DNA of 63,950 nucleotides, counting the filler, from Conidiobolus incongruus B7586 (lineage: Eukaryota), in NCBI GenBank assembly GCA_000697335.1. It is 10 parts of 10 records of this genome, joined end to end, with 100 filler letters (N's around TTAATTAATTAA, not from the genome) between each part and the next. Parts side by side here need not be neighbours in the genome. Positions count along the whole stretch, not along the records: positions 1 to 12,678 come from JNEM01006870.1; positions 12,779 to 18,811 come from JNEM01006879.1; positions 18,912 to 26,599 come from JNEM01006880.1; positions 26,700 to 28,589 come from JNEM01006882.1; positions 28,690 to 32,236 come from JNEM01006883.1; positions 32,337 to 39,628 come from JNEM01006884.1; positions 39,729 to 52,156 come from JNEM01006885.1; positions 52,257 to 55,679 come from JNEM01006886.1; 2 more parts are not named here. The stretch is one strand, 5' to 3'. Positions 1 through 62,693 of the stretch are shown one piece after another. The stretch's first letter is position 1, and the number at the start of each line of letters is the position of its first letter. The notes under the pieces are model-generated. The model did not search any database. It was not told the DNA's origin and worked only from the letters and a program-made list of their open reading frames with translations. The translations under genes and the position numbers were made by a program.

Positions 1-676
1 ACTTTAATAATAAACTATTATAATTAATAAATCTTAAATTTTTTTATATAATCTTTTATTAAATCATAAATCAAAGTGTTAGACTAAGTTAAATTAACCT
101 TTTTTTATAAATTCCTTTAAATAAATATTTTATTGATAAGTAAATATTAATTGTTATAATAAATTATAATAACATATATTATTTTCATTTAGTTTTTAAA
201 AGAAAATCAATTAATAATAAACTTTATATCTCTTTTGTAAATAAAACTATTTTTAATTAGTATTTTTAATATAATTTAAGAAAACTTATTATTTTACATG
301 ATAATTATAAAATAAATAAATTTAAAATTATAAAAAAATTTTTAATTGAAAATAACTAGAAAAAACTACCATATTTAATATATTCTTTAAATTTTAACTT
401 ATGTAATTATAATTATTTTAGGTAATTAAAAAAATAACTAATAGAAAAGAAAATTTCTAAAGGAAAATTTAATTAGTTTGTAAAATATCAAATTTTAGTC
501 TTTAATATAAAGAATTATTTTTTAAGTGTTAGATCTTTGTTAAAAGTATAATAAAAAGTTATTATAAATATAAGAAATTATTAATTTTATAATATATATT
601 TAGTTTTACTTTTTATATATTAAAATGTTTATTTTTTTCAATCACAAAAAATTCCCATTATTTAAATTAAAAGTAA
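1..676 (+). mobile_element. mariner (DD34D) transposon relic, 3' part with right TIR; heavily C>T/G>A mutated
   Basis: Colinear with 28762-29438, e.g. tttaagtgttagatctttgttaaaagtataataaaaag vs tttaggtgttagatctttgctaaaagtatggcaaaaag. Shares the terminal aatc(a/g)caaaaaattcccattatttaaatt...gtaa followed by TA. Confidence 0.88.
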
Positions 677-1712
677 TATTATTACAAACTATATAATATT
701 TTAAAAGCTATAGTGCTTTAAAATTGTGCTATTCAAATTTTATTAAATTGAAAATAAAAAAATAATAAATAATTGATAAATATTAAAATATATAAAAACT
801 TGGATATTATTCTCAAGGTCCCTAAATCTGTTATATAAAATTCAGTTTGAAAAAAGATATTTATTAAATGTATATTTATTTCGTATCAAGATAATATCAC
901 ATTGCAAATATATTTGAAAGAATATATTTATCTAGAGATCAATCATGATAAGGTTATAAGTTAAAATTTTATAGTTCATAATTTATTAGGGGATTAGATT
1001 ATAACTCGAAAATATATATCATTATATAAAAGATGTTTATGGATATTCAAGAGTAAATGTCATATTAATGATGAATATAGTGTATCATTCAACAGTAAGT
1101 CATTATTTTCGCATTATATCAATTTGATTTAGATGATATCAATACTGGGTATAAAGATATTAATGTTATCAAGTTGATAGAGAAAAATTATGGTATAATA
1201 ATTAAAATCAAATACGATGGTGTAATTTTAGAACTAATATTTTGATATTTTGATTAATTGGTTAATAAAAATTTTATTCAGTTGAAAGTAGTTTTTAACC
1301 AAAAATCAAAAAAAAATTAGAAAAAACACATAAATCAGAAAAATGTATAGTAATTGAATGAAATCGTAAAGTCAACTAGTAACAATGTATGATGAATAGT
1401 AATATAAAAGAATGTTTTCTAAGGATATATCATAATCAAAATTATACTATACCCTGTAAAAATAATTATATTAAAATTAGACAATAATTGTGATTGAAAT
1501 AAAAAACGATTTAAATTAAGATAACCTATAATATTGAAAAAGAGGTTGAATTCAAAGAAAAGAAGGTAAAAATCTAAAGAGAATAAAAAAGAAGAAATTA
1601 GTACATATTAAATACCTTAGTAAAATAATATTTGAAATGAAATATAAAATAATGAATAGGTTGAAAATAATTTACTTTAATCCAATTATAATAGAGTATG
1701 GTCAAAAAATCA

Positions 1713-2453
1713 TTACTTCAGATTTTGAGCTGCAGGTTCGTCAATAAACCAAGTCACTTTACCCTTGGCGAGCTTGACTCTGCTAGCAGGATATTTCTGG
1801 TCTTGCTGTTCGATAATTTGAGGCAATATATCTTTTTTGTTGTCTCCAGTAACGACAAATGCAACAGCGTGAGCGTGGTTTACTACGGGGAAAGTGAGGG
1901 TAATACGCTTTGGAGGGGGCTTAGGGGAGTTTTCAATCTCAGCAACCCACCTCTGGGATTCTTGTAGTAGAGGGTGATCGGGGAACAGAGAACAAGTATG
2001 ACCATCAGGACCAATACCTAAAAGAATTAAATCAAATACAGGGAACATTACTTCATCCTTAGGAGAAAAGATATGGGCAAGCTGATCTTGGTAATCCTCA
2101 GCAGCACTGAAAGGATCGTCGACAAGTTCATTATTGATAGGGAAGACTTGCTCAGGGGGAATTGAGACAAAATCTAAGAGTTCTCTCTTAACTAAACCAT
2201 AATTAGAATCGGCATGGTCGTGAGAAACGCATCGTTCATCCGCGAAAAATACAAACCACTTGCTCCAATCTACTTGAGCGTTATCTTTTAAACCAGCGGC
2301 TAAGGTTTTTGGGAGAGAGCCACCTGAAATAGCTACTGTGAAACGGTCATGCTTTTGAATGGCTTCTTCAGCTGCTTTGATGACGTAATCAGCCAAGGCT
2401 TTAGATACCTGATCAACGTCAGATAATCTCAATACTTCTGTAGTACCGGGCAT
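1713..2453 (-). CDS. SOL3: 6-phosphogluconolactonase (Sol/PGLS family), 246 aa, intronless
   Basis: Motifs ISGGSLPK, FFADERCV, SNYGL, FDLILLGIGPDGHTCSLFP and PKPPPKRITLTFPV. Confidence 0.95.
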   Translation of the reverse strand: MPGTTEVLRLSDVDQVSKALADYVIKAAEEAIQKHDRFTVAISGGSLPKTLAAGLKDNAQVDWSKWFVFFADERCVSHDHADSNYGLVKRELLDFVSIPPEQVFPINNELVDDPFSAAEDYQDQLAHIFSPKDEVMFPVFDLILLGIGPDGHTCSLFPDHPLLQESQRWVAEIENSPKPPPKRITLTFPVVNHAHAVAFVVTGDNKKDILPQIIEQQDQKYPASRVKLAKGKVTWFIDEPAAQNLK

Positions 2454-5400: not shown

Positions 5401-5744
5401 AATTAGTAATAGATCAAATATCTATATTACCCATTTATTAAAAATGTAAAGTCACATATATTTATCACAAATATACCTGTTTTCTTTATTGTTAACAGAT
5501 AATTTAATTGAATTTTGAATTTTACATTCTATATTGTAATAGTTTTCAAATAGTAAATTGGCTAGATGAGAAATAAATTTAGAATATAATATAATATCTC
5601 TTATCAATTTTGTAGATTAAAAGCATTAAACAAATTAATATTTTAATTTATTCAATTCAATCATTAATAACATCTTTTTCATTATATATACCTAGAAAAT
5701 AATAGAATTAATTGATTTTATATATTCATTAACATTCAAACATC

Positions 5745-7023
5745 ATGACACTTTCTCAACCAAGTGAAAACACCTCACTACTGCCAACCAATTCTTCTAA
5801 TGGGTTCGATTATGTTGTAGACGTTGATACCAATGATGATCCTATGAACCTTAAGTCAAAAAAACAATCTCAAGAACAGTTATCACTTCTTATCCAGCAA
5901 GGGCGTCATAATGTCCATTCCTTTTACTCTCAGCAAAATGAACTCATTGAAGATTTACTTACTGCTCTAGAACCTAATGTAGACGATTCTGAAAACTTGC
6001 TTAAATTAAAAATAGCTATTAATGGTTCAGTTATCGTCAATATTGTATTGTTAATCTTGCAAATGTACGCGGCCTTTACTACTGGATCACTATCACTTTT
6101 TGCTACTATGGCCGATGCTTTTATGGATCTTTTATCAAGTATAATATTATTATTGGCAGGTTGGGCCGCTGATAACGTTAATCACTTTTTATATCCAACA
6201 GTAAAATATATATTAGTTTTTAGAGCCATTTAATCAATTTGTTTTAGGGTAAATCAAGGTTAGAAACAGCTGGTATTATTGTGTTCTCTTCTCTTATGGC
6301 TACCGTTTCAATTAATCTTTTGGTAATTATTTTTACAATTTTTATTATAATATGTTCAAAGTAACAAAGATTATAGATCGAAGGTGCAAAAGCTTTGATT
6401 TATGTTGAAAATAAGGTTGAATTAACATTTTCAAGTGTTGCTTGCATTGTAGCTGCTTTAGGTATTTGAATAGATTATCTTAAATAATCAGTCAGCAATA
6501 TTGATATCATACTCTTTTAGTGTCGAAATTTATTTTATACGTGTATTGCTCTATATTATCGAAATACCCAAGCGCTCAAATATTGGCATTGGATCATCGA
6601 AACGATATAATTGTTAATGTATTTGGTTTAAGTATGAGTTTGTTGGGTCACAATTTGTATTGGTGGATGGACCCTGTAGGATGTCTACTGGTTGCCCTCT
6701 TTATTTTAAGATCTTGGGTTAGCACAGCTTTGGAGCAAATTGATTTAATTGTTGGAAAAGCTGCAGACCCTGACTTTTTAAAGAAGCTAACCTATATTTC
6801 AATGACTCACGATCCTCGAATTAAACATATTGACACGTGTAGAGCTTATCATGCTGGAAACAACTTCTTCGTTGAAGTTGACATAGTATTGGATCCCAAT
6901 ACTCCCTTACATGAAAGCCACGATATTGCAGAAAGCTTACAAATCAAACTAGAATCTTTACAAAATGTTGAAAGAGCGTTTGTCCATGCTGACTATGAAT
7001 TTTTCCATGCCCCTGAGCATTAA
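5745..7023 (+). CDS. cation diffusion facilitator, Mn-CDF (MTP8/MTP11-like), ~372 aa; exons 5745-6200, 6248-6322, 6377-6461, 6521-7023
   Basis: Three short GT..AG introns join the ORFs in frame (YPT|GKSRLETAG). Carries DxxxD metal sites DAFMD and DHRND, and a C-terminal ZT-dimer domain (VEVDIVL..HDIAESLQ..VERAFVHADY). Confidence 0.93.
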
Positions 7024-8076: not shown

Positions 8077-9334
8077 TTATGACCAGACCTAATTTAAAGT
8101 AAATAAATATAAATTCAATAATCAAAACATAACAATAATAATAGATACCTTAAGGAAAGAATCCCAACTTCCAGTACATAGAGCCATACCGTCAGAGGAT
8201 ACTCCTAAACAGCTGACTCGATTGTCATGACTAGCTAACACCCCAACTCTTTCTCCCTTTAAGGTATCCCAAACATTACAATGATAATCATCGTAACCAG
8301 CGAATAGCAAGCGACCCGATATAGAAAAAGCCACTGAGGTAATACCACATAGAATGTTATCATGAGTGAATTGATTTAGCTCTCTATCCGCCCTTAAATC
8401 AAAGAGACGACAAGAAGCGTCGTCGGAACCAGTAGCGAAAGCATTTCCATTGGGGAAAAATCTAAGGAGATATTATTTAGTATATTTAATAAATAGCAAA
8501 ATTATATATTAAACTATGAACACAAAAAATAACAAGTATGGGAAAATTAATACTTACTGGACGGCGTTAATATCGCTTTCATGGCCTGTAAACGTTTGAA
8601 CACATTTACCAGAACGAATATCCCATATTTTGGCAGTGGCATCACAAGCACCAGTAACAAAGGTATTCTGGTCAGGGGATAAGGACAAAGACATAACATC
8701 TCCAGTGTGATCTGTAAATTCGGTGATTTTCTTATTATGGTCAATATCCCAAAGAATACAGGTCATGTCACCAGAACTAGTAAGGATTTGTTGGTCATTA
8801 AGGAAGCGGCAGCAAGATAAGTAACCAGTATGGGCGTTCAATTCTCTCATAACTTTGCTTGGTGAATCTTTACCAGTCAAGTTGTAAACGGAACAAATAT
8901 TATCTAAACCACCACAAGCGACAAGGTTACCAGAAGGAGCATATGCACAAGTCATAACCCAAGAAGAACGAAGTGGAATAGCATGAAGCTTATTGGTAGT
9001 ATAGGCATCCCAAACAATGAGTTTACCATCTTGAGAGGCAGAAATTAAATGTCTTTCATCCGAAGCCCATTGCATAGCATAAATTTTAGCCAAGTGACCT
9101 TTAAGAGTTCTTCGAACCTTCATAACAATTCTTGGTAAAGGTTCAAGTTCAGCCGCCATAGCTTTGACTAGAAAAAGTTAGTAAGCGACTGGAGAAGTGC
9201 CAAAATAAAAGAAGATATGAACAAGATAACTTACGGGTAGTATCAGCTAAGGAGTCCTTTTTAATTCTAATCTTTTCTTTAAGCGTTTCGGCTTCTTTTC
9301 TAGCAGCATTAATTCTTTCGGCAGCGTCCGACAT
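8077..9334 (-). CDS. GPB1: heterotrimeric G-protein beta subunit, 344 aa; exons 9334-9235, 9167-8558, 8461-8149, 8088-8077
   Basis: Contains [30 protein letters not shown]40 repeats and C-terminal [12 protein letters not shown]. Splice sites keep the frame. Confidence 0.97.
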
Positions 9335-12300
9335 TTTGTTTAGTATAAGTGAGTGAGTTAGATATTAATTGAGTGAGAAATTAGTTGAAAATAAAATTAA
9401 GAATAGGGGTAAGAAAAGTGACAAATTACTTTTCTAGCTTAAATACGATAATAACTCAATTAACAAGGCTTGCTAATTGAAAACAATCAAAGCTTGAGTT
9501 TGAGCTAAGTTGAACAAGAAGAGATGAGGTACTGAGAAAAGCAAAGAAAAGAAAGAGTTTGTTTTGGCTAAGATATTAAAGTTGAGTAAGCTCTGAAAAC
9601 AAAATAATGTAGAGTAAAAGGGTTGAAATGGTCAATAAAGTAATTAATATCCAAGTTGAATAAAAAGTAGAATAAATATCATTTATTTTTGTAAAATGAT
9701 ATTTCATTTAAGTCTCATGTCTATCTATCACCCTTCATAAATTTAGTTGATTGGTAAATAAAAACCAAAACCATCTTTTTCTCCCATGATCCCCCTTATT
9801 CCCCCTCCGCTATTTTATTCTAATCTACACTTATCCTAAGAACAGCCATATATTCCTACAAATATTGTTGATTATTTGCTGGATCAGGTCAATTCTTTAT
9901 CATTATCTGTTCTACAGCTGTTTTGTTTCATTTGTGAGCATATTTGAATCACTGAATTTTGTGGCTTAAGACCAACAATCTACAAACACCCCAATGAGTG
10001 GTGAATAAGAATCCAATACTGGACACGATACGAGCTAATATTAGTAATATTTAATGATCAAAGTGGCGAATGCACTGACATTCGAGTTTCAAAATGAAGA
10101 AAGTTTCAAACCCAGCTGGCTATAATGCTCAATAATAGTTATACTGACTTTCATGTTAATTTGTATCCAATTGAAAAATTTTTCTGATCGCATTCCAAAG
10201 TATTAGAAAATTCCATCTAACGATATACAGAAGTAACATTTCATTTTATTCAGCGTTAAAATATCAAATTCTTAAATTTTACTAACAATTATAGATAAAA
10301 CTCTAGGGTAATGATTTAAGAATTCTTGTTACTCGTTAACCAATTTTACGAAAATCTGCTATCCTCCGTTCTCCCTTCAACTGCTTCAATGCTTTTGAAA
10401 CTTTGATAAATTGGTAATTCTAGTGATTGGTTAATTACTTGATGATGAAAGATTTAGCCAATTAGTTTAGCAGAATGAGACTGCATTTAATAAAATATAC
10501 GTTTATAACAATGTCAGTCATTTTGAATATACTCTATTTTTGAATATTAGTAAATAAATATAAAAGTGTATTGAATAAACAATTGAAATGGAATGGATTT
10601 ATAGTTAATGTTTAAAATGGATATTTATTTTGGGAGACATATTGAACACATTTTAGGATTGAGACAAATGAGAAAATAAATTGGTGGATCTAAACCTATT
10701 TCACTTGAATGTTTTTCAATTTTAATTTCGGATATTATTATTGGATGAATTGTAACATGGAGAAACTAAATATTCAGATTCCAAAATTTATAGCCAATCC
10801 TGAGTAAATTGATTTGAAATGAATTTGTAGTTTTATATGTAAATATATTCAAAGCTTAAGAAAAAATTATTTTATTTATGTCACATTCTCTGTCAAATAA
10901 ACTTAACATAACAATTCACTGTTTCTTTAATTTATATAATAAAATAAATATGATTTCATCCCAATATTTCAATAACAACAATGAAATAATATTATATTAA
11001 ATGTACCAAATTCTGAATTATTAATAAAACTATCACAATATATCCTATATAATCTCTTGTTTCAAAATTTAAAATAACTCAGATCTTCTTTAATAATTTG
11101 ATGATAATTACTCTTTCAAAGCAAGCTAAAACACCTTTCACTTAATTCCATAGTTGTTATTATTTTAATATTTCATGCTACAATTATAATCTTATAACTT
11201 AAAATGAAAATCAAAATTAATATCATCTTTATACTATATCTGGTTGATATAAAGTATTTGTTATTTATAGAAACTATTTATCAAAATTGTATTTTACATA
11301 TTTAGTGCGTTTTAAATTTCGGAGGAATCCGAGGGTTAACCAAATATGGCTATTTCTATTGATATTATCCAATGATTTCGATTAATTCAAGTTTTAAAAC
11401 TATTTATACTCTTTTGATTGACTGAAAATGATTCAAGTTTTAGTCAACAAATATATTTGATATTTCACCAAGTATTTTCATTATTTTATTCTCAAAAAAA
11501 ATTTTCTGATTTTATGTAGTTAATATTTGTGAAAATGTATGAGAAAATTTGAACTGTAATAGTGATTATGTAATCATAATTGGAGCATGGTTTAAAGGTA
11601 TATATTAATTGGATAATTTGGAAATATCATTGTTTTATAAGCAATAATCAAAACAATATTTTATTCTGTAATACACTTCAAAACTTAATGAAAGTCCCAA
11701 TATTGACTCTTTTTTCAAAAGCTGCTGTAAGTTTATCAAATGATATAACAAACATAATCCAAAATTAATTTACGAAATATATTATTTGTTTCACTTAATC
11801 CCTAATAAAAAAATAATATAAAATATGTACTTCGAATATAAATTTAGACTTTAAATAAAATCAATACCAATTTTATAATGCCATTGATTTAAATAATATA
11901 TTATATAGGCTAACTGTTCAAAGTAGACAAATAGGTATTAAATTATAAATATTTAGTATTTTATAAATATTTTTCATTCTTTGAGAAATTTACTCTTATG
12001 CATAAATTGTAAATTCTTATTATATAAAAATAATGATGTAAACATGAACACAAGGTGGATTTTATAACTGAATTTTTGTTATAGTTTATTGAAATAATAT
12101 TGATTTAATTGTTGGAATTGCAATAATCTTTTGTTATACAATGAATTACACAACCAAGTGAAAAATCAAATAATATTTTCAAATATCAAACAAATTATAT
12201 TAAAAAATTAAATATATATTGAGTATATATTATTCTAAATATTTTTACTAAAATCTATCTATTATTATATATTATAATATAAAAAATTTATAAATAAAAT

Positions 12301-12778
12301 ATTAATTGAATTTATTTATATAAATAAATATTGTTTTTTATAATTTTTATATAATTTCTTATATAATTAAAATAATTTACAAAGTACCTAGGAAGAATTT
12401 TTGGACAAAAAATATTTAATTTAAATAGCAATTATAATCAAAATTTATTTCTATTTCAAATAATATTTTGTTTAATCCTTATTCAAATAAAACTGGAAAA
12501 ATATATTATAAAATAATTAAATATAAATTTAATTAAATCTTTGAATAATTAAATTTAAAATTTTAATAAAAAATTATATTCAGTTATTATTTACTATATA
12601 TTGAAATAACTTATTAGATATTTATTATTTCAATATTTGCTTAAATTATTAATTTTTTTGATAATATTTTAATTATATNNNNNNNNNNNNNNNNNNNNNN
12701 NNNNNNNNNNNNNNNNNNNNNNTTAATTAATTAANNNNNNNNNNNNNNNNNNNNNNNNNNNNNNNNNNNNNNNNNNNN

Positions 12779-12963: not shown

Positions 12964-15900
12964 TGTTAAAAGATTAATTCTTTAAATTTTTATATATACT
13001 TTTATATAATCTAATTAACTATAAATTATACAATTGATTTATATTTATATAGTTAAATTAATTATATAAATAGCATTGAATTATTTAATAAACTAAGTTT
13101 TTCTTTTTTTTCTTAATTCTTACTATTTTTTACTTTTACACTATTTCTAATATTGAGACTATATTCTTTTAATATTATAAGATATTAACACTACCTAATA
13201 TAAATCTTAATATATTAGTAACTCATCTTAGTTTAAAGTTTAATTAAACTTTATTTATACTTGTACACTACAATTACATTATATTATTACATTCTATATA
13301 TATTATTTTTATATTAAATTTTCCTCTATATTATATTAATTTAACTACAACTATATTTATATAGTAGCAGTAATAAAACTATTAACAACCTATTAGAAAT
13401 TAATAATTATTTGTATTAAATTTAATTATTATTATTTTAAATCTTATCTATAATTTATTTTATTTAAATTTTACATTATATATTATAATACCACCAAAAA
13501 AATACCTTTATATTATTTTAATAATGATAATAATTTAATTACTAAGTAAATCTAAAACTTTAATTTTTAAAAGTTTATTACCCTCTAAAAAATTTATATT
13601 AGACAACTTTTGATTAAAAAAAATATATTTTAAAAAGCTTAAATCTAATAAACTAACTACTTTACTATAGTTAATATATAAAACTACCTTTTTAATATCT
13701 TTAAAAACAAATTAATTACTTATGATAGTTTTAAAAACCTTTATAAACTTGAATATTATCTTAAAAATATAAAGAATTACCTTAATTTAATCTAAGTTAA
13801 AAATTTAAAAAATATCTTTAATTATTTTTTTTTTAGAAAATTCTATTTATATTTAGTAATTAACTTATTATAAACTTAATCCTAAAAAATTTTTAAGAGG
13901 ATAATTTACTATAAAAATATAAACTTTTAAACAATTAGAAAAAACTTTTAAAGAAAGGTATTACCTAAAAAATCAAGTTTAATTAATAAAAGAAAAGCTT
14001 TCTTAACTTAAATAAAAAACTTTTACAAAATAATTAATTGAGAAATTTAATGAGATATGTTTAAATATATTAAATATCACTAAAAAAAACAAATCTATAA
14101 ACTATTATAATGTTTTAACTTTTAAGTGAAGTTTTAGTTAGTTAATAAAGAATACTTTGATAATATGTTTTTTTTAACATTTATAATACAGCAATTATAA
14201 TTAGTAATATCTTTTACTTTATAATTAAATCTTCCTACCTAAAAAATTAATCTTTTAAACTTTATTTTAACCCACTTAAGTTTTAAATAATAGATGTTTC
14301 TATTTTAAAACTTTATAAAAAAACCTTTAGTAAAGAAATTAAAGCCTACTTAAAAATAAATAAAGGTTGTTATTACTGCTAAAAAACTTAAGTTAATTAT
14401 AAAACTAATAAATACCTTTTAAAAAAGCAACATCTGTTTAATTTTCAATAATCTTAACCTACCAACTATAAATCAAACTTGAATAATATTAATATAACCT
14501 TAAAATTACCCTTTTTACAATTAGTTAGCAAATTCTAATTTAATCCACAAAAGTTTTAATAAACTATTGATTCTACAAATTAAATTATATATACTAGAGA
14601 AATTTAACTGATTAAACCATTAAAAATTAGAAATATTTTAGTAATTAATTTACCTTGTGATTTTTACCTTTAACTATTACCTTATTGTTTATATTAATTA
14701 ATTTCTTTATAAATACACCTATTAGTGTTTTAATTAATTCTAATTGTTTTAGTTATATTATCTCTTTTTTTATTATTGTAAAGTTATCTTTACTTACTTA
14801 AAAAAATAACTTGATAATTAAATATACTAATAACTTAATAGAATAAGTATCTGGTATTATATTTAAATATTTATTATTACCCCTTAACTACTTTTAATAT
14901 ATTAAATTCCTAGTTAGTAACATTAATTATAATTTTATACTAAGTTAAAATTAATTTAAATATTACAGTTTTATATCTATAAATATTATTCTAGAAGGTT
15001 ACAAATTTATTTTTTTTATATTTTAAAAAAAATTAGCAGAATTAATTTTAAAAAACCTATATTACCTTATTATAAAATTATTTAATATTATACCTAACAT
15101 TAACTTTATAATTATCACAAATAATTCTATTATTATAAACAAAAACTAATGTAAAAAATGAATTAAAAACTTTAATAATTTATAAAAATATATATTTGTT
15201 TATTATTTATTTATTAATATTTTATTTGTTAATTTCAATAAAATTATATTTAATAACCACTTCTTATATAATATAATAAGTTAAATTGCTAATGTTTTTA
15301 AATTTATAGATAAATTACATTTTAAATATAATATTAAATATAAAATTAAGCTACTCTCTAATATACAACTATACTTAAAATTTACTTACCATTTATCTCT
15401 TAAATAATATTAAACTTTAAAAGAAGAAATCCAAAAACTATTTAAAAATAGGTATATTAGACTTTTTTCCTTATTATAAAAATCTCTAATTTTCTTTATA
15501 AAAAAAACTGATGGTGGTTAAAGATTATATATTGATAATTATATTTTAAACTTTAAAACTATTAAAGATAAAACTTTATTATTAAACTTATATAATGTTA
15601 AGGATAAACTACTTAAATCAACTATATTTATTAAATTAGATGTTAAGAATAGATATTATAATATTAAAGTTGAAGAAAATTTTATCCTATTAACTACTTT
15701 CAATATCTTTTTAAGTTACTATAAATTTACTATTATAAACTTTAGATTGTGTAATACCTTTGTAACTTTTATTTAATTTATCAATTCCTTTTTTAATTTT
15801 AACTTTAATAACTTTATTATTATATACTTTAATAATATTTTAATCTATTTAAAAACTAAAGAAAAATATATTTAACATATTAATTAAATTTTACAAATTA

Positions 15901-30466: not shown

Positions 30467-30599
30467 TTTGACCTGAAGGTTTGATTATTGAATTGGCTTA
30501 TAGGTATCAGTAATTTTGTTCCTGACTCAATCAAACTATTTATACGCTTTTTGAACGAGCTCCATACAAAATCTCGATAAAATCAGAAATCAAACCAAA

Positions 30600-41610: not shown

Positions 41611-41907
41611 ATGGTACTGTTACGTTCTATTTTATCTCCTGTAACATTCAAAGAAGTTCCCCTCGCAGAGTCACCTCAGACATCAGTATTCAAATTAACA
41701 TTTGTCCTGCTATGTGTAATGGTTAGCTGGGGAGGAACTTGGTTAACTACAGGAAGTAATCGCTGGATAATGCGTTTGTGTCTACTAATGAGTTGGGGAA
41801 TCCTTATACATCAATGTGATGACTTCGTGGTGAATTCTTCAGCTCCTCATTGGCGGATCTTAGAGGTAGTTGACAATTGGATATTCACTGATCAGGAAAT
41901 GGATTAA
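41611..41907 (+). CDS. hypothetical 98-aa protein with two hydrophobic segments
   Basis: ATG-started ORF in a locally GC-richer patch. No recognisable family. Confidence 0.3.
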   Translation: MVLLRSILSPVTFKEVPLAESPQTSVFKLTFVLLCVMVSWGGTWLTTGSNRWIMRLCLLMSWGILIHQCDDFVVNSSAPHWRILEVVDNWIFTDQEMD

Positions 41908-42194: not shown

Positions 42195-43617
42195 ATGTCA
42201 ACTTTTTTGGTAAGATAATTTTAAAGATAAATTCTATTAATTTATTTTAACTGATATTAATTAGGCCAGATCTCTGATCAAAGATGCTACACCTACTTCG
42301 GATTCCAAAAAATCCACTTTTCAAAAATCATCAATCAAAATGAGCAAATCTATTTCGAATCGCTCTTCTGAGTTAGAACTAACGCATTTATTCGAAAATA
42401 GACATCCCATTCGAGGATTCTTCACTCTATTTTGGGTGGCTATGACTTTCTATTATTCACAAACTATTATCAGAACTCTGAAAGCCACTGGACAGCCTAT
42501 TGGAACTGCTATAATTTGGCTTATTTCAGAGACTTCTGTAGAGTTAATAGTATCCGATATCATAATGGTATTGTTCGCTTCATTATGTTTTCCTATTCAA
42601 TATCTATTCGCCCATACATTTTTGGGAAAGTCCAAAATTATCAGAATTGGAATTCAAACAATTTACGAATTGAGCTTTATTGTCGCCTGCACTTGGTATT
42701 CTATTAATACGGATTGGTATGCTTCGAGTCGAGGTAGTTTTTATCTCCACTCTTTAGTCATGCTTATGAAATTGCATAGTTATAATGCCAAAAACCAGGA
42801 ATATCTCGTAAAGAGACAGACATACTTGAAATTGAAACCCATTAATAAGACTAAAGATTCACAAAAACAGCTTCATTCATTGCGAGCTAAATTTAGCACA
42901 AGTAACCTTTCTATGAGTTATCCAGCTAATGTGACTTTATTCAACTATTTGGATTATTTACTCGTCCCATCCCTTTGTTACAACATTGAATTCCCAAGAG
43001 GCCCCAAAATTCGATGGCTCTACGTATTAGAAAAACTGTTTGCAACTTTCGTTTTAGTTGGACTTCTCCTGATCTCTGTAGAGCATCACATCTATCCCAT
43101 TATGGAGCAGAGTAATTTATCAGTATTGGAAACTCTGTTTTATCTCTGTCCTCCAATTCTAGTAATTACAATGCTAATATTTTATATTATGTTCGAATGC
43201 GTATGCAATGGGTTTGCAGAATTGACACGATACAGCGATCGCAACTTTTACGAAGATTGGTGGAACAGTATAACATTTTATGAATTCAGCTATAAATGGA
43301 ACAGACCCGTCCATTTATTTTTAAAAAATTTTGTATATAAAGAATTGCTAAAGACTAGGAAATTCACCAAAGTATCCGCACTCACTCTCACATTCCTAAT
43401 ATCTTCCATTTTTCATGAATTAGCGATGGGAGTCATATTTAAAAAATTTATTTGTGTTTTTATTATTTTTCAAATGAGCCAAATTCCTATAACCTTATTG
43501 ATGTCTTTACCCATCTTTAAGAGTCGAGCTTGGTTAGCGAATGCCATATTTTGGTTTGGTTTAGGTTTTGGTATTCCGATGATATTTTTAATTTATTTTC
43601 ATGTTAATTTTATTTAA
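42195..43617 (+). CDS. ARE2: sterol O-acyltransferase (ACAT/ARE, MBOAT family), ~455 aa; exons 42195-42209 and 42265-43617
   Basis: Motifs FYEDWWN, KWNRPVHLFL and SSIFHE (catalytic His). An upstream ATG micro-exon MSTFL plus a GTAAG..TAG intron splices in frame 25 codons before the called ATG. Confidence 0.92.
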
Positions 43618-48000: not shown

Positions 48001-50510
48001 ATACAGCATCTCTATGGTTGATTTCTTCCGGTCCACTATCATAGTAGAAAGTCGAAAAGGTATCCATGATTCTGTCGATTTGTTGAGATTCTCCAGGCAA
48101 GCGGAAAGTTGTTAAGAAGTCTCTGATAGCTTCATCTATACGCTTGTTTTTAAAGTCAAACAAGCTTAAAAATGACTCAAGCAATTGAGTATTTTGTGAC
48201 TTGGATAGGTACTCTCCTAATTTTTTCTTGTCTAATCCAGGTGTATTTTTAATAAACTTAGCAAGCTCAAGATTGAAATTTGAGCTATCCTTAGGAGGCA
48301 AAAATTCATGCTGAACGAGAAAATCTATTCCATTAGCAGGTTTAGCATTAAATTGTTCCACTGCTTGAACTAAAATATGCTTTTTGGCTTTGTTGGATAG
48401 AATCTGCTCTGGAGTTTGAGTAGAATACAAAAAGTCAGGATTTGGTGCAACATCAGTTTGATAAAGTTGAGGAGGAATACGATTCAAATATGAGTTGATT
48501 CCAGTTAGACGGGTCAGTAAAGCGTTTTGAGGCTAAAAAGTATTAATAATAGTAAAATGGGAAAATTTCAAATCTATACCTTATAATGTGATCTTAGCAG
48601 CATAGAAGCAAGAAGTTTAAGAATTTGCTCAAGCCAAATGTTCGATATCTGCGATGGAAATTCCGATGTAGTGTATTTAATACAATTATCCACAATGAAA
48701 TTAATGAGCTTTTCCAAGATATTTTGGTGATAAATATCTGAATCATAATTGATGAAAAGCTCGTTGAAAAAAGTAGGAGAAGATTGGAACAGGTTAAATA
48801 GGAAATTCACGAAGAGATATTGAATTTGATCCTGTTTAAGCTTACCAATATTTCCAAATTGATAGGATGGTGAACTTATTTGAATAGCTTGGTTGATCAA
48901 CAACTGGAGCTGGGCTTTCATATAAGGCAAACCAAGTGATAACAACAGTGTACTAAGGTCCAAGGATTGGGTGACAATATTCAAATGCTCACCAAACTGT
49001 AACATCCATAAGTTTTTCATTAATTGATCACATATAAGTGGTCTTAAAGATTCTTCACGCATTATTAAATACCCATCTTTGATAAAAATTGAATGCAACA
49101 AAGAAATGCCAATTAATCTCATATAATCTGTATGGGACAAGCTATGGGGGTCTAAGAGTGAAATCAACGTCTTGAAGATTTCTTCTAAAACTTCAACAAA
49201 GGTAGGAGCAGTATGAGCATCAGAAAGAGAGTTCGATCTAGAAATTGATGGTCTAGTTGAAGAATCTGCTCCCACAATTAATGTATCACTTGCTGCCAAG
49301 GCCTCTATAGCAGGGTTAAAATGACGAAGAGGATTACTAATTAACTTCGAAGTAACGCAAAGAATAATAGATTGAATGGCTTGTTCAGCATGATGCCTGA
49401 ATACCATCGACATTTTAATCTGATGACATAAAGAGAGAGCAGATTCAATAATAGCATGAATGTGAGTTGTAGCGAGTCTATCGAAAATCAAATCAGAATG
49501 AACCATTGTATCCATGGCTTTCAAAATTTTCATTAATACGATTTCATCTTGACTAGGGTCACTTGATTCAAATTTGCAATTAGTAACAGCAACTGAAAGC
49601 TCTCTAATGGATGTGATCAAATTGTTGGAATGTTCAGCTAAAACACCATTAATTGAATGATTCAAGTGTAGTATTTATGGATCGCTTACCTATTACTCTA
49701 TTTGCAAGAATATAATGAACAGCAGTGAGAGCGGCACCAGTTACGGACCCACTAGTTTCGGCTGACTGAATGATATGTACAAATGGGCTTAAAACCGTCA
49801 GGGAATCAAGATCTCCCCTCTCTATTCAACATCAAGATATTCTTTATTAGTGGAATTTGAATAACTAAAAAACTAAATTACATACCAGGCACTCTCTCAA
49901 TATATTTTCTTAATTCTATCATTTCGACAAGAACACCAGGAGGTTTCTAAACACATATTTAATAAATGGTTTGGTTCTAGTGACCTTGATTAAATAAGGG
50001 ATTCATCATTACCTTAAAAGTATTACTTCTTTCAATTTGATCCCAATCATCAAATTCAAAAACTTGAGTATTGATCAGTTTCCCCAATTTACCAAGTTGA
50101 ACGCGAGGAGTATTTGATGAAGCTGTTGAAAGGGTAGTCAACTCCTTTTTAGCATCGCCCTCGGTACTGGAAGTGGATTTCAGATTATTATTTTTGGATT
50201 CTTCTACAGTTTCCTTGTTTAAATTTGGGATCAGAGGATTATTGTTTCTAAAGTCATTAATAGTAGAATTACAATCCAACAAAATGGCCGATATTGGTAC
50301 ATTATGAGGCTTATATTTAGAATTGGATAAAATTTGCAATATAATACTATTAATTTGTTGTTTTAAAAATATTCTCCATTCGTCACAAGATACAGTAGTA
50401 ATTTCGTTCACATCGGCCAAAATAGATTCCAAGTTGTTATTCTTAATATCGGTAGTATTTAAATCCACAGTATTTCTGGAATGGTCATTATAAAAATTCG
50501 ATTCCGACAT
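45001..50510 (-). CDS. GBF1: GBF1/Gea1-2 type Sec7-domain ARF guanine-nucleotide exchange factor, ~1741 aa; exons 50510-50013, 49946-49886, 49821-49690, 49637-48580, 48532-47662, 47606-45001
   Basis: DCB motifs LSPFVHIIQSAETSGSVTGAAL and CKFESSDPSQDEIVLMKIL, HUS box LFINYDSD, Sec7 motifs FRLPGESQQIDRI and VMLNTDLHNPQV. Five GT-AG introns keep the frame. Confidence 0.95.
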
Positions 50511-52827: not shown

Positions 52828-53757
52828 TTAATCTTCTAAGGTGCAATTATTAGGTTCCATTGTCACCATACCCAACCCCTTTAGTGTTTGGTTTTGGTAT
52901 GTGATTCCAGGATTGTAATCATCTAGCTTCCCAGTTGTTATTTTGTATCGGTCATTAAATGCAGCAATTTCATCAAGACTACACCTCCTTGCCATGCATT
53001 TGCAATTTGATGAAGATCCACACCATCCTGGTGTCTTCATCTTGTTGTAAAAAGCACATATACCAGCTCCAGTGGATTCTTTTATTCTCGTTGCACATAC
53101 TATCATGTTACAAACATTTGTGAAACAGAAACTATATGCAATGTTTAGCTGCTCAGGTGTTAGATAGCCAATAGCATTGAGATCAAATGATGTTGATGCT
53201 CTTACAGCAAACGCCTGACTCAGATCACAACCTAATACATCAGAAGGTGAGGTATCAATTTCAACAATAGTGCTGTCTTCTGTGGGAGTAAGATCGCTAG
53301 TAATTGTGGCAAGTTCATTGGTGACATCTAGCTTGCTTGATTGTGTTTCATCCTTCTTTACAACAGTTGTGTTTTCATTTCCATTTCCATCATTAGTAAT
53401 AATAGAGGAAACATCATTGAAAAATTTGCATGAATTTGTTTCACCAAAGACACCGTTCTTGTTGCAAGCTCTTCTGCCTAAGTAATCTAATCCTTCTAAT
53501 GCATCTTGGGCTTTCTTTGGATATTTTCTAAAAACTTTTCCAATTTTACTGCCACCAGGTATAATTGCAATAATATCTGATACTGAGAAACTATCACAGT
53601 TTTGTCCACCACTTAGATGACAATAGCCTTTTGAAATAGTTACTCCAACACTGCAAAAAGAGTCGAAAGGTGTAGGAACTTTGTCACAATCAACACCTGT
53701 ACCTCTATAAGCTGTGCAAAGCTTGAGCGTGAATAATATGGAAAAGATATAAATCAT
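52828..53757 (-). CDS. secreted cysteine-rich protein of unknown function, 309 aa, intronless
   Basis: Signal-peptide-like N-terminus MIYIFSILFTLKLCTA and 17 Cys. Two Cys-rich blocks are separated by a Thr/Ser/acidic linker. TATAAA lies ~50 bp upstream. Confidence 0.85.
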   Translation of the reverse strand: MIYIFSILFTLKLCTAYRGTGVDCDKVPTPFDSFCSVGVTISKGYCHLSGGQNCDSFSVSDIIAIIPGGSKIGKVFRKYPKKAQDALEGLDYLGRRACNKNGVFGETNSCKFFNDVSSIITNDGNGNENTTVVKKDETQSSKLDVTNELATITSDLTPTEDSTIVEIDTSPSDVLGCDLSQAFAVRASTSFDLNAIGYLTPEQLNIAYSFCFTNVCNMIVCATRIKESTGAGICAFYNKMKTPGWCGSSSNCKCMARRCSLDEIAAFNDRYKITTGKLDDYNPGITYQNQTLKGLGMVTMEPNNCTLED

Positions 53758-55779
53758 TTTTGAAATATTAATTGATTATAAGCCTGATATATAAAAATTT
53801 GGAATTATTTATATTTAAAATTTTCCTGCGCATAATACAGTGTGGTGAATTATGTTAGAAATGTGGCGCATTATGTTATGAAACGTGGCGTATTATATCG
53901 CAGATCGGGAGGTCCACTCGCCATTCAACTTTTACTGTCTATCATGATTCCGAATGTAATCCACTCACAAATACCAGTCGCAATACTTGTACAATGGCAA
54001 ATTCTAGATTATATTCCTGATTAATTTAAACTAAATTATATAATTAATTTGATATTTTTCATGTTTATTTTGATCAATAACAGGGTCTATTCTGAGATTT
54101 TGAAGATAATTATAAAAAAATTTTCACATGTTAAAAATAAGATTTAATTTTTGATTTATGAAATGTAAGGTTAATTATTAAAATAAAAGTTGATTCTAAG
54201 ATAGTATATTTAAATTTAAAATATAAATAAATAAACTGAATATTATTATTATATTATTTTGTAAAAAAATTTATTAAAGTAAATATAATTATTAATAAAA
54301 ATAGAATTATTAATTTTTATAAACAAATATAATATTTTCTAATAATATAAATTAAATCATGAAATTATATTGGATATAATTATTTCAAAATAATTTTTAT
54401 AAAAAATTGTACTAAAAAATGAATATATAATATCCTAAATTATAAAAACTTTAACATAATAGCGATAATTAATAATTTCACAAATCAATAAAAATCAATA
54501 TAATATTATAAGCATTAGTTTTTTAAATATCTAAAATCAAATATAATTTATTGATAAACATGATCAAGGACAAATAAAAAGATTAATTAATTATCTGTTA
54601 ATATTATTATATTAAGTATTTACATATAAATTAAAATAATAATATATTGTTAAATTGATTTTATTAGCTTAGGTTAATAATATTTTATTTCAATTACTTG
54701 AATATTTCTGTTATTTAATATATTGAATCAATAAACTAAAATAATTAATAAAAGTATATTAAGTTTTAAGGATATCAAAAATTGAAGAATAATTATTATA
54801 TAATTTAATAATATTGCGGATTTTAAACTCGATGATAAGTTTTAAGGAATTTTCCAATAGTTTACATAGTTTTGTATTAATAAAAAATTTCAAATGATTA
54901 CTTAATATTATTTTAAAATAATTTCATATATTCTGACCCTTTTTAATAACAAAGTTAAATTTAATAATTATTATATCTTTATAAATATAATTAAATAAAA
55001 ATATAAATAATAATATTAAATTATATATCAATATATGAAATTTATTTTATCATAAAATATTTAATAAAAAATGTAAGTTGAAACAATTTCAATTTATTTA
55101 AATAATATTATTTATACATTACTAAAAAATTTGAATAATATAGTATTTTATCAATAATTAAAGATTAAATTTAACTTTATAGTAAAAATATTAAATATTT
55201 TGAAATTTTTTAACATTAACAGGTATTTTTGATGTTTTAATACCATATTTTAGTTATATCAATTTATTTTTTATAAACAAAGTAATATTCGTTTTACTAT
55301 AATATAGATCAAGTAGAATTTAAATTATTCTTTTTATTTGATATCTTATATAATAACTAAAAGTTAAAATATAAGTATAAACTTAATTATTTTAATTAAC
55401 GATTAATTACAAAAAAAATAAAAATAATTATAAATATTTTAAAGTTTTTTATAAATATTTTCATTCAGATCCATAAAATATATAAAAAGTGAAAATAGAG
55501 AATAATTTAAACAAATGTCTTTTTTCAAAGAATCTGCTATCTGGTAATAAATTTTATAAAATATGAATAAATTATTTAATAAAATATAATTTTAAAAAAT
55601 TATATTGCATATTTTTATTATATTTTAGATAAATTTATATATTATTAGCGTTATTTATATTTCTTTAAATCCTTTATGANNNNNNNNNNNNNNNNNNNNN
55701 NNNNNNNNNNNNNNNNNNNNNNNTTAATTAATTAANNNNNNNNNNNNNNNNNNNNNNNNNNNNNNNNNNNNNNNNNNNN

Positions 55780-56827
55780 ACTTACTAGAAAATAATATCA
55801 GATTTATTTAACCTATACTATTCAATGGTTTTTTTCAATTCATTGTTTAAAATACTTTAGTATATCTCAACATTAACTCCACCATTAACTTTACAAAGAT
55901 ATCCTATACCTAAAGACAACATATATCCCCAAATAATAATTAACCTACTATTGTACTTTTGGGTAAAATTAACATGATAGTTATAAAATAGTTCTGTATC
56001 TTTTTTGAAACATCTAGCTTTTTTATCAAATCTACTAAAATATATTTTTATTTCATTAGATTAAATAACCTTACTCTAATTAGTTTTAGTTTAACATTAG
56101 TGATAACATTTAAACTCCCACCTAGTTTTATAGTGGGATTTCTTTAGTTGGAGGTGTTTTTTCTTATAGTGTAAGTGGTATCTATGCTAATGTAAAGTAC
56201 ATATAATAGTATTAGTGCTAACTAATATTCTTATATAGTCTTATAGTTCTTGTTGTATTTCTATAGCAATACCACACTTGCTTGTATTAACCAACTTATA
56301 AATATACTTCTCATTATATTTATCTATGATTTTAACACACTTAAGTTTAAGTTTAAATGTTTCTTTATTGTTATTCTTAATAGCTTTAACTATAATAAAC
56401 TAGCTAACATTAGTAATTCTAGCAATATCACAAGTTAATTTACCTTTTTTATAAAGTTAATTAATACATAAGTAGATTTTTTTAAAAAGGGATTTAGGTA
56501 TAATAATACTAATAAAAAAAATTTAATATATCTGTAAAATAAAATATAAAATAATAGCAAAGAGAGAAAAAAGATATGGTTATATATTGTTAAATATATT
56601 CCCTTATCTCAAAAACCTGTAAATTTATAACTTACTTTGGTTAAATATTAAGGGTTAATATTTTTGCTAATAGTTTAATATATATATCTAAATATATTTA
56701 TTTATTATTAAATAATATATCTTAATTATATATTATAATTTCAAGTAATCTAAAATATACAATTGTTTTAGTTATTAATTAATATATATATATTTTTGAT
56801 TTTATAACTCACTTTTGCAGGTCAGTG
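55780..56827 (-). mobile_element. Tc1-like element, partial (gap-truncated)
   Basis: Colinear with ~61647-62693. Has the best-preserved TIR end, ataactcacttttgcaggtcagtg plus TA. Confidence 0.92.
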
Positions 56828-58097
56828 TATAAGTTTTTGCTATTAATTATATCCTAGTAAGTTTTATATAATTATAATTAAATTAGTCTTTTAATTTTTG
56901 ATTAAGCTATTTTTTTGTAAATTTTTACTTAGATGAAATAATTATTTTTATTATATAATATTTCTTTAATATTAAAAAATTCCAAAATTGATTAAAATTA
57001 ATAAAAGTGTTTAAATATATTATAAAAATTCTATCTCTAATTATGAAATATGGATAAATTTAATTTTTAAATTTTTAAACCTTTGAAATAATTTTAGACT
57101 TATATTTAAATTAATTTATCTAGATTCAAATGGTATAAATAAGATTGATATATTTATAAAATTTTTTTAAGTTTTAAATTATCGAAAAGCTCATGTTTGG
57201 GTTTTATTAATAACATTATCAAAGACAATGGAACATGACTATTTGGTTTGAGAATAATTTAATAATATCCAAAATAGATAGTTTTCAATCAAAATATATT
57301 TTATATTAATATATATATATTTTCAATCAATAAATTTCCCATTTAATATGTAATGTTTTTTGGATCCTTATATTATATATATAATTCTGAATTAAATTAT
57401 TTGCAATTTTTTAATTCTAATATAATAATATATTTTTAAAATAACCAAATATTACTATTAGAGTATTGAGTTGAATTTTACAATATATATATTTAAAATT
57501 ATATTATTTATAAACTCTTGATATTTATGTAAAACTAGCATAAAAAATAATATAGAAACTATTATATTAAACTATATATAGAAATTTTAATTCACAAGTT
57601 ATATTTGAAATATCATTATATATCAAAATTTGAACTTTTGCAAATATATTTTCAAATAGTATTTGTTATATTAATTTAAATTATTCAATTATTTATAATT
57701 TTTATTTTTTTCAATTTTTATATAATTTTTATAATTTGATTTATTTTTAAAATTAATATATTTCAAAAATATTTGTCCATTTTAATTTGATAGATAAGCC
57801 AATATTATCTTTAATTAAGGCTGGTTTTATAGGTTTATAATGAAATAATATAATACTGAATTAATTATTAGAATAAGGTTATCTATAAATAATATATTAT
57901 CAACTATTTTTATGAAAAGAAAACTCAAAATAAATCAAAACAAAATAAATATTAATCAAGATAAATTTGATTAAAATTATTATATATAATATAATATNNN
58001 NNNNNNNNNNNNNNNNNNNNNNNNNNNNNNNNNNNNNNNNNTTAATTAATTAANNNNNNNNNNNNNNNNNNNNNNNNNNNNNNNNNNNNNNNNNNNN

Positions 58098-58609
58098 TTA
58101 TTATATAAAATAAATAAGTTATCTTATTAAAAAAGCTATATAAAAACCCCTAGAAAATATTAAAAATATCTTAACTTATTATACTTATTTGTAAAAATCT
58201 AAAGAGTATGTCTCCTTTAAAAAACTTATTAAGGGAATATTAAAAAACTAATTCTTTAAATTCTAATATATATTTTTTTATAATTTAATTAATTATAAAT
58301 TTATGATTAATTTATACTTTTATAGTTAAATTAATTATATAAATAGAATAGAATTATTTAATAAACTAGGTTTTTTTCTTCTCAATTTTTACTATTTTTT
58401 ATCTTTTTCACTATTTTTAAGATAAAAATTATATTTTATCAATATTATGGTATATTAACACTATTTAATATAAATCTTAATATATTAGTGACTTATCTTA
58501 GTTTAAAGCTTAATTAAACTTTATTTATATATTCACACTATATCTTATATTATATTACTATATTCTGTGCCATACTATCTTTATATTAAGCTTTCCTCTA
58601 TATTATATC
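58098..58609 (+). mobile_element. 3' fragment (chromodomain end, PPT, most of the LTR) of the same gypsy family
   Basis: Colinear with ~18125-18637. LTR starts at 58238 after the purine tract aagggaa. Confidence 0.85.
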
Positions 58610-58767
58610 AATAACCTTTTATTATTATACTTATAAATTTAATTTCTTAAAATTATTTATTTTTTTGAAAAATCTAAAATTAATAAATATATCAATTTTT
58701 TCAATATTATTAACTATATAATATATAAAATAAAGTTTTAAACTTTGAATATGAAGTTTGAAATATA

Positions 58768-60304: not shown

Positions 60305-61120
60305 TATATCAAAGCTAATATATTTATTACATTATAACCTATATAACTAAAATCACTTTAATAAATTAAATAATATAATTAATAGTAAGAAAATTCAGGA
60401 AAATAAATTTCATTAGTTTATAAAACTTTAAATATTAATTTTAAATAAAAAAAACTAATAAAAAAATTAAAAATTATTAAAAAATATAGTAAAAAGCTAT
60501 TTAAAACAAAAAAATATTAGTTTTATAATATTTATTAATTTTTTTTAATATATATTAATTGATATTTGATTTTGGATTCAAAATCTTATTATTATATAAT
60601 ATCTATAATAATATTGATAGATTTTATTTTATATATTCTAATATTTTTATATATAATTAATAATTAACCTATATAATTAACTATATAATTTAATCCATAA
60701 TAAATTTTACTATATTATATTTTTAAATATAGTTATTTTTATAATTTTAATAATTCTAAGTATATCTATCAAAATGAAAACAAGGTTTAAATAAATAACC
60801 ATTTGTAATATAAATACTTAGATATTATTTTAAAAAAATATTTAGTTTTATTTAATATAAAATAAATTATATTTTTGTCATCTTTAGCAAAATATATTAT
60901 TAATTATATCCTTGCTTGCAAAATACAAAAATAGATTCAAACCTTATCAAAGGATATTAAATTTTATAATAAAGCTAAAAAGATTAGAGTCATATTAATT
61001 CCAAATATATTCAAGTCTTATTTATTTTTAAATATCGGATTACTCTTGAATTTACCAAACTATTATCTATTTTAAAAAATACAATATATAAAAATATTAC
61101 AAAATATTGAAATTAAAATA

Positions 61121-62693
61121 CATTGACTTGCAAAAGTAAGTTATAAAATCAAAAACACCTATATTTTTACTAATAACTTAATTAATATTTAATAAAATAA
61201 ACCTAAATTAAATAATTAAAATCTATTATATTTATTAATTATATATATCATTAAATGATGATATTTAGCTATTAATTAGCTAAAATATAAACCCTTAAAT
61301 TTTACCTAAGATGAGTTATAAATTTGTGGGTTTTTGGTGATAAAAAAAAATTAAAACCTAGTGTATCTATCTTTAGCTTTTCTAACTTCTTTAAGTTTGT
61401 GGGGTATAGAATCAAATAACTTCTTACACTAAGAAGGGTTAATCTTGTTCTATACTTCTTAAACATATTCCTAAAGTTGATCTAAATTTTTTACTGGGGG
61501 GAAAGCTTTAATAGCTTTTTTTAACTGATTATAAAGGTGTTTAATTAGATTAAAGTTAGGAGATTGAAGAAGCTACTTCATAACTATTATCTTGTTATTT
61601 TTAAGCTATTTGGTAATAGAAGTTGTAGTATAGTAAAAGGTATTATCTTGCTGGAAAATAACATCAGATTTATTTAACCTATACTATTCAATGGTTTTTT
61701 TCAATTCATTGTTTAGAATACTTTAGTACATCTCAGTATTAATTCCCCCATTAACTTTACAAAGATACTTTACAACTAAAGACAACATATATCCTTAAAT
61801 AATAATTAACCCACCATTATACTTTTGGGTAAAATTAACATAATGGTTATAAAGTAGTTTTGTATCTTTTCTAAAACATCTAGCTTTTCTATTAAATTTA
61901 CTAAAGTATATTTTTGTTTCATTAAACTAAATAACCTTACTCTAATTAGTTTCAATTTAACATTAATAACAACATTTAAACTCCCACCTAATTTTACAGT
62001 AGGATTTCTTTAGTTAGGGGTGTTTTTTCTTAAAGTATAAGTGGTATCCATGCTAATATAAAGCACATATAATAATATTAGTGCTAACTAATATTCTTGT
62101 ATAGTTTTATAGTTCCTGCTATATTTCTACAGTAATACTATATTTACCTGTATTAACCAACCTACAGATATACTTCTCATCATGTTTATCTATAATCCTA
62201 GCACACTTAAGTTTAGGTTTAAATGTTTTTTTATTGCTATTCTTAATAGCTTTAGCTATAATAAACTAGCTAACATTAATAATACTAGCAATATCACAAG
62301 TTGATTTACCTTCTTTATAAAGTTGATTAATACACAAGTAGATTTTTTTAAAGAGGGATTTAAGTATAATGATACTAATAAAAAAAATTTAGTATATCTG
62401 TAAAATATTATATAAAATAATAGCAAAGAGAGAAAAAAGATATGGTTATATATTGTTAAATATATCCCTTTATCTCAAAAACCCACAAATTTATAACTCA
62501 CCTTGGTTAAATATTAAGGGTTAATATTTTTGCTAATAGTTTACTAAATATATCTAAATATATTTATTTATTATTAAATAATATATCTTAATTATATATT
62601 ATAGTTTCAAGTAATTTAATATATACAATTGTTTTAGTTATTAATTAAAATATATATATTTTTGATTTTATGACTCACTTTTGCAGGTTAGTA
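61121..62693 (-). mobile_element. full-length Tc1-like DD34E transposon with IR/DR ends (1573 bp)
   Basis: TA-flanked TIRs. Relic IFQQDNTFYY...K*LLQSPNFNLIK corresponds to FQQDNAPCH...WPPQSPDLNPIE, with 34 residues between D and the former E. Confidence 0.93.

Follow-up and report, generated by a model that had tools for sequence, protein, structure and literature searches.

Repeat-targeted, directional C>T hypermutation of transposons in a fungus outside Dikarya: RIP-like in outcome, with its own ranking of sequence contexts

Repeat-induced point mutation (RIP), the RID/DIM-2 system of Neurospora crassa and other Pezizomycotina, lays down strand-coordinated tracts within a round, and many rounds blur them. 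DIM-2-mediated RIP has a strong CpA preference (10.1101/115501). In the Dim2 mitotic mutator of Zymoseptoria tritici more than 95% of changes are C>T and more than 98% of the C>T changes fall at CA, CG being spared (PMC8016269), and Amselem et al. (2015) described CpA plus CpT signatures in Magnaporthe, Botrytis and Sclerotinia and CpG plus CpA in Tuber, linking the CpG signature to Masc2-like genes (PMC4352252). No RIP was found in chytrids (PMC6572847), and a kingdom-wide 2025 screen found RIP-like signatures to be unique to ascomycetes, scoring Conidiobolus coronatus, the sole Entomophthoromycete we found in the 12 of its 19 supplements covered, as 'no_rip' (PMC12543289); Entomophthoromycotina data were not found in the portions of PMC7862722 and PMC13297926 covered. 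The sole contrary report that we found to an ascomycete-only RIP rests on dinucleotide indices and has caveats of its own, the composite RIP index being 24.2% for Zoophthora radicans and 2.4-5.7% for its relatives (PMC11105155). Here we describe a 63,950-nucleotide stretch of Conidiobolus incongruus B7586 (GCA_000697335.1; the window) in which, in a host outside Dikarya, gypsy, Tc1-like and mariner transposable elements (TEs) carry a genuine C>T hypermutation that is repeat-targeted and directional, resembles RIP in outcome and has its own context ranking.

As in RIP, C:G>T:A change is limited to repeats belonging to unrelated families, CpA is, per site, the most frequently changed non-CpG dinucleotide, the relics are colinear, AT-rich and rich in stops, and the effect apparently fades with divergence; unlike RIP, the host lies outside Dikarya, CpG is wholly lost, CpT is heavily affected, strand-coordinated tracts are absent and linked host duplicates are untouched. 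The Zymoseptoria Dim2 mutator is alike in its methylation-linked C>T change in repeats, and its gradual build-up fits the balanced strands seen here (PMC8016269), but the copies described here have lost their CpG and show more changes at CpT than at CpA. Mixed dinucleotide targets in TE copies recall the CpA/CpT and CpG/CpA signatures of ascomycetes, yet those species have RID-like genes and none tabulated joins CpG, CpA and CpT (PMC4352252). Repeats also lose CpG through methylation decay of the Masc2/DNMT1 type in Microbotryum and the rusts (PMC4352252), where the effect is CpG only, whereas here 45-60% of the visible CpA and CpT sites differ between young copies. The index-based signal of Entomophthoraceae comes from the same subphylum, with a composite RIP index that is likewise positive in repeats, but that report, in the portion covered, presents dinucleotide indices and neither aligns copies nor gives a direction, a ranking of contexts or neutral controls, and it deals with large-genome Entomophthoraceae (PMC11105155); our host belongs to another lineage (its 6-phosphogluconolactonase, 6PGL, is 61% identical to that of E. 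muscae). An earlier, sequence-only reading of this DNA had held such mutation to be not established outside Dikarya, which is a fair statement except that RIP in Entomophthorales had already been proposed from indices, as in the Z. radicans figure above. Our literature search, which covered few subscription papers, found no paper that documents such mutation in Zoopagomycota at the level of alignments. What the window adds is evidence from individual copies that includes the direction of change, a ranking of contexts and neutral controls, for a further, very probably Entomophthoromycotina, lineage. This makes three questions testable (did RIP-like mutation precede Dikarya, is RID needed, and is meiosis needed) and may offer another way to approach the deamination step in RIP, which is still unidentified.

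The window comprises ten contigs joined by nine 100-bp linkers (44 N, a 12-base six-frame stop and 44 N; e.g., 12679-12778), and contig order across the linkers carries no evidential value. Self-comparison identified three TE families, and four of the ten contigs are nearly pure TE. The gypsy set includes two long copies, two LTR (long terminal repeat) pieces and an old relic at 54-55 kb, and the Tc1-like and mariner sets have four copies each:
12966-18660, plus strand: gypsy copy G13, with LTRs at about 12966-13357 and 18267-18655 and decayed reverse transcriptase (RT) and integrase; contig without CpG
32337-39628, plus strand: gypsy copy G32, with a Tc1-like copy nested inside; zero CpG over 7.3 kb
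39729-40030, minus strand: gypsy LTR relic L40, on the GBF1 contig
58098-58746, plus strand: gypsy 3' end with LTR, L58, found by self-comparison
54012-55451, minus strand: very old gypsy relic, 63% identical to G13, GC 12%
34389-35978, plus strand: Tc1-like copy T35, nested in G32; 25 in-frame stops, private transversions 0.3%
55781-56831, minus strand: Tc1-like copy T56, truncated at the contig end
58764-60320, minus strand: old Tc1-like copy T59; private transversions 3.3%, four frameshifting deletions
61116-62703, minus strand: Tc1-like copy T62, with imperfect terminal inverted repeats (TIRs) of about 220 bp and a single 337-codon frame (62367-61357) with 18 stops
1-690, plus strand: mariner copy M0, heavily mutated, 84% identical to M29, on the 6PGL contig
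25544-26599, minus strand: older mariner copy M26; private transversions 7.5%, three one-base deletions across the span of the open reading frame (ORF)
26700-27190, minus strand: mariner 5' fragment M27, found by self-comparison
28690-29445, plus strand: lightly mutated mariner copy M29, with an open stretch of 181 codons (28799-29344), two stops upstream and one CpG, on the hsp20 contig

Young copies within each family were found to differ chiefly by transitions. The transition/transversion ratio (Ts/Tv) was 4-18 in 7 of 15 pairwise comparisons, namely the Tc1 pairs T35/T62 (158/9), T35/T56 (120/9) and T56/T62 (91/10), the gypsy pair G13/G32 (536/70), the LTR pairs inside single elements (39/7 and 24/6) and the mariner pair M0/M29 (90/18); in a control pair of hsp20 paralogs it was 101/68 (1.5; Fisher p ~1e-15). 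The remaining eight comparisons gave 2.0 or less (0.6-2.0). The statement that copies differ almost only by C/T and G/A thus holds for the young pairs but not for the three T59 pairs (1.8-2.0), two M26 pairs (1.0-1.4), T62's own two TIRs (0.6) or the old gypsy relic (0.8). The individual T62/T56 differences first quoted for it are present (CTTGCTGG/CTTACTAG, AACATC/AATATC and CCCACCATTATA/CCTACTATTGTA). We also mapped contigs from four public runs, all of a single sample that may be the source of the window itself, on 61345-62470, a 1.1-kb part of T62 containing 145 C and 129 G. In run X1, 21,428 of 482,767 records matched (~21,400 contigs per run), and 266 of 276 variable places were transitions (C>T 91, G>A 73, A>G 50, T>C 52; transversions 10). 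The Tc1 family probably numbers hundreds of copies, by an uncalibrated estimate.

This spectrum is specific to the repeats. Over a TE compartment of 21,580 bp, with boundaries set by us and all neutral controls taken within the window, there are 2 CpG against 81 expected at the spacer rate (Poisson p 2e-32), as the remark that the gypsy and Tc1 bodies hold essentially no CpG had anticipated. The observed/expected ratio (o/e) of CA/TG is 0.63 in TEs, 1.12 in spacers and introns, 1.16 in coding sequence and 1.14 in spacers below 19% GC, and these last, AT-matched spacers (5,700 bp) retain 25 CpG. The hsp20 genes provided further controls:
29948-31761, minus strand: two neighbouring, intact hsp20 paralogs, 76% identical, with 6 and 9 CpG
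27614-28122, minus strand: hsp20 pseudogene, with 6 CpG kept and private changes of 84 transitions and 80 transversions
The pseudogene, which had been proposed as a single-copy comparison, is in fact a dead third hsp20 copy; with a Ts/Tv of about 1 it lacks the TE signature all the same. These results support repeat-targeted mutation as opposed to general AT drift, which does not account for the AT-matched spacers and the pseudogene; the earlier reading had named C>T decay of single-copy neutral DNA as what would speak against it, and the outcome is in its favor. The very old gypsy relic is unlike the younger copies, having 5 CpG against 5.2 expected and a CA/TG o/e of 1.04. Outside TEs, CpG o/e is only ~0.6 in genes and spacers, so a weak general CpG effect exists as well.

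Several smaller observations concern the same regions. Between the hsp20 paralogs 10 of 14 CpG-context sites differ, in line with the weak general effect, and the pseudogene is flanked by a 119-bp inverted repeat (73%; 27289-27405 and 28442-28560), either a capture resembling a miniature inverted-repeat TE or chance. The first CpG lies 123-616 bp from six TE edges, the mean spacing in AT-rich spacers being ~230 bp. AT-rich flanks at 12001-12678, 56833-57997, 60371-61050 and 62706-63950, with two shorter ones (4,662 bp together), have 2 CpG against 19 expected and normal CA/TG; these may be unrecognised relics or reflect CpG-only spreading.

The change is directional. Between the two mariner copies, C/G in M29 corresponds to T/A in M0 at 86 sites, and the opposite holds at 6. 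On a profile from 51 of 150 mariner matches, which were found with M29 so that scores lean to M29, the comparison with M0 favours the C/G codon at 46 of 52 sites and includes 12 changes to stop; the figures for M26 are 36 of 42 and 7. Among 32 Tc1 codon columns with a stop, a sister copy has W, Q or R in 14, every copy has the stop in 13, and another sense codon occurs in 5. Two single-contig variants from the public runs (61964-61984 and 62054-62066) have C/G for T62's T/A at 11 of 11 differing places, and carry 4 CpG, sense-coding, where T62 has TA or CA. The Tc1 family therefore once had CpG, since lost, and the sample contains a less heavily mutated form of it, which may be a young or active copy. 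Ancestral CpG could not be recovered from adjacent CA/TG column pairs in the window copies, there being 0-3 per alignment. Taken together, the data support C>T as the direction of change.

Sequence context was counted over the pooled gypsy, T35/T62 and M0/M29 alignments with both neighbours shared, which biases CpC low. CpG loss is near-total, and differing sites make up 234 of 390 CpA (60%), 365 of 808 CpT (45%) and 12 of 109 CpC (11%), giving an overall order of CpG > CpA > CpT >> CpC. The description of the changes as 'most often CpA' is thus right per site but not by count, where CpT leads. The implied C>T rate in young copies is ~86-192 times the total transversion rate per site at CpA and 60-91 times at CpT (~4 times in the hsp20 pair), and the preference for the 5' neighbour is slight (0.50-0.77 across NCA/NCT, except ACT at 0.38). 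We rejected CpA loss as a by-product of CpG decay, as CpT sites and TGG codons are also mutated, and editing specific to retroelements, as the DNA transposons are affected as strongly as the retroelement. M29 (23% GC, adjoining the intact hsp20 genes) shows only light change at CpA and CpT, but its CpG count is down to 1.

Both strands of a copy are affected, as had been noted, and equally so: strand bias was absent from nine pooled copies (sum z2 4.6, df 9, p 0.87), and neither bias nor strand runs reached p<0.05 in any of 19 copy tests. The load is not simply proportional to age. Young Tc1 copies have a load (lambda) of 0.21-0.67 at 0.3-0.4% private transversions. The old copy T59, with 3.3% private transversions and four transversion stops besides its four frameshifting deletions, has a load of 0.84, against ~2-4 expected had the rate been constant (P 0.006 under the most conservative of three settings, in which half of the T59 transversions preceded insertion). 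T59 is unsaturated, keeping 149 of 374 C/G of the young copies and 31 of 116 CpA sites. This plateau, together with the normal CpG and CA/TG of the 63%-identity relic, suggests that young, similar copies are targeted and that the effect weakens as they diverge, though few copies stand behind it. The adjacent hsp20 duplicates and a 92-bp tandem array show no such mutation, which counts against a Neurospora-type sensing of linked duplications; the claim of a homology-triggered process accordingly gains from T59 and the relic and loses from these two. The array (62939-63503) has 6.2 units, 99% alike, with 5 CpA/TpG per unit and zero transitions between units, and may be recent or an assembly artefact.

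The host was placed by two marker genes:
1713-2453, minus strand: 6PGL
45001-49674, minus strand: GBF1/Gea-type Sec7 ARF-GEF
A 6PGL search gave a top match of 86%, the best named matches being to Basidiobolus (62-66%) and Entomophthora (61%), with the first ascomycete name at rank 52 among the 120 matches listed. In a tree of 37 rows picked by us among those matches, the window grouped with Basidiobolus, Neoconidiobolus, Massospora and Entomophthora (91/90, not starred), and six Dikarya rows formed a separate group (99/97). The top match of the GBF1 Sec7 region was Neoconidiobolus, and a GBF1 tree of 21 of the 120 matches listed, no ascomycete included, joined the window to Neoconidiobolus (100) and then Basidiobolus (95), the first two branches being long and compositionally odd. 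Approximately unbiased (AU) tests on 19 rows rejected grouping with five Dikarya rows (p 0.033) and with the sole ascomycete row (p 0.017) but not grouping with Entomophthorales (p 0.20). These placements support a host outside Dikarya, very probably a member of Entomophthoromycotina; an ascomycete with ordinary RIP, which the sequence-only reading had named as something that would refute it, is rejected. The elements are part of the host genome, since mariner M0 lies beside 6PGL on one contig and gypsy LTR L40 beside GBF1 on another.

On balance we lean towards all-context cytosine methylation of young repeats, followed by deamination in many small steps. A putative DNMT1/DIM-2-type methyltransferase would methylate young repeats in the order CpG > CpA > CpT >> CpC, recognising them by their likeness to other copies, whether through DNA pairing or small RNAs; the front-loaded load, the plateau in the old copy and the unmarked 63%-identity relic argue for recognition of this kind. 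With methylation as the presumed intermediate, deamination of methylcytosine, enzyme-accelerated or left unrepaired, would accrue in small independent steps on both strands, possibly during vegetative growth, and its outcome would be the stop codons throughout the transposase and RT frames. Precedents are the Dim2-dependent mitotic C>T change in Zymoseptoria repeats (PMC8016269) and the DNA_methylase genes in all entomophthoralean genomes examined in one report (PMC11105155). Several points weigh against this proposal. The plateau depends on a single old Tc1 copy and on 9 transversions in the young ones, and might be imitated by sites that resist mutation or by an episodic history; patchiness along the copy, at p<0.05 in 4 of 19 tests, leans slightly to bursts; many weak premeiotic RIP rounds would also give balanced strands; and Zymoseptoria Dim2 spares CpG, which here is gone. 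A rate ~100 times that of transversions at non-CpG sites, moreover, exceeds what we would expect of passive deamination, so that methylation and decay would need a putative enzymatic step. We speculate, more tentatively, that a zygomycete-grade fungus could harbor a homology-sensing, enzyme-driven repeat mutator that acts on CpG, CpA and CpT, works without RID and may not require meiosis. Were that true, RIP-like defence would either predate Dikarya or have arisen on two occasions, and its enzyme, whether a mutagenic methyltransferase or a methylcytosine deaminase, would belong to a class of its own.

RIP proper or a close analogue, in which a RID/Masc1-like enzyme acts on duplicates paired near karyogamy or spore formation over many weak rounds, with separate CpG methylation decay, seems to us unlikely, although it would account for CpA as the leading non-CpG target, for a front-loaded load that declines with divergence and for a composite RIP index above 0 in 46 of 126 1-kb windows here. 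In every ascomycete that Amselem et al. examined, CpA/CpT signatures accompanied RID-like genes (PMC4352252), and Entomophthoraceae have methyltransferases with a RID-like domain layout, at merely 12-14% identity, which their authors state are not readable as RID homologs (PMC11105155). Strand bias and strand runs are lacking even in lightly mutated copies, the adjacent hsp20 duplicates and the 92-bp array are not mutated in this manner, and more changes fall at CpT than at CpA, all of which tell against RIP proper. We consider it quite improbable that a cytidine deaminase directed to heterochromatin or transposon intermediates acts here without methylation: the very high rate, broad context and slight 5' preference would suit such an enzyme, but the preference sits on the 3' neighbour and CpG loss is complete, both of which are expected of methyltransferases, DNA transposons are affected as strongly as the retroelement, and the strands are equally affected, without clusters.

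The similar load of T35 and T59 despite a tenfold gap in transversions, and the contrast between the nearly spared M29 and the heavily mutated M0, could also reflect an episodic history in which chromatin-guided methylation and decay were strong in a past period only, without any sensing of likeness. This we judge very improbable, given a threefold spread of load among young copies and an oldest relic that has fallen to 12% GC but is back at a normal CpG level, as would fit an action that is long-standing and ends with divergence. Least probable of all, and largely refuted already, is a general AT-biased mutation of all neutral DNA or the derivation of the TE contigs from a contaminating ascomycete. 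The genome is AT-rich, with a CpG deficit even in genes and spacers, and four of the ten contigs are almost wholly TE, but the signature is absent from AT-matched spacers and the hsp20 pseudogene, M0 and L40 share contigs with 6PGL and GBF1, T35 is nested in a gypsy copy of the L40 family, and the public runs that contain GBF1 also contain the Tc1 family in bulk.

As to the identity of the elements, the G13 translation (X at stops) matched Pfam RVT_1 (E 1.9e-8) and Integrase_H2C2 (E 8e-4), and the one frame tried for the RNase H region, probably the wrong one, had no Pfam match. The RT motif is YFNN in both gypsy copies and the Tc1 motif is XLLQSPNFNLIK, the decayed forms on which a one-way decay of motifs had been proposed; their intact counterparts we take to be YLDD and WPPQSPDLNPIE. 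The old relic aligned with a score of 227 against a maximum of 35 among 20 shuffled sequences. T62 matched DDE_3 at E 0.0016, weaker than the Pfam cut-off, and the Tc1 frame (X at stops) had no homolog at E<=0.001 among 765 candidates. M29 matched DDE_3 and Transposase_1 and had 1,782 relatives at E<=0.001, the closest at ~35% identity. Behind the gypsy integrase (18067-18228 and ~38970-39130) there is a chromodomain-like tail, for which a Pfam search gave no match; its motif, W-x-GY ... EP, judged by eye, we take to be chromodomain-like, which would make the element chromovirus-type.

The rest of the window includes a GC-richer region at 40700-41900 that resembles decayed coding DNA, its 102-codon ORF having no Pfam match, and a cysteine-rich, secreted-looking ORF of 315 codons with a hydrophobic N-terminus (52828-53775, minus strand), also without a Pfam match. 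Upstream of the latter is a GC-rich tandem repeat of 21-22 bp with several CpG (53841-53896). Ordinary host genes are a cation-efflux transporter (5733-7023), a G-protein beta subunit (8122-9364), a Zn2Cys6 factor (20673-22325) and an MBOAT acyltransferase (42265-43617).

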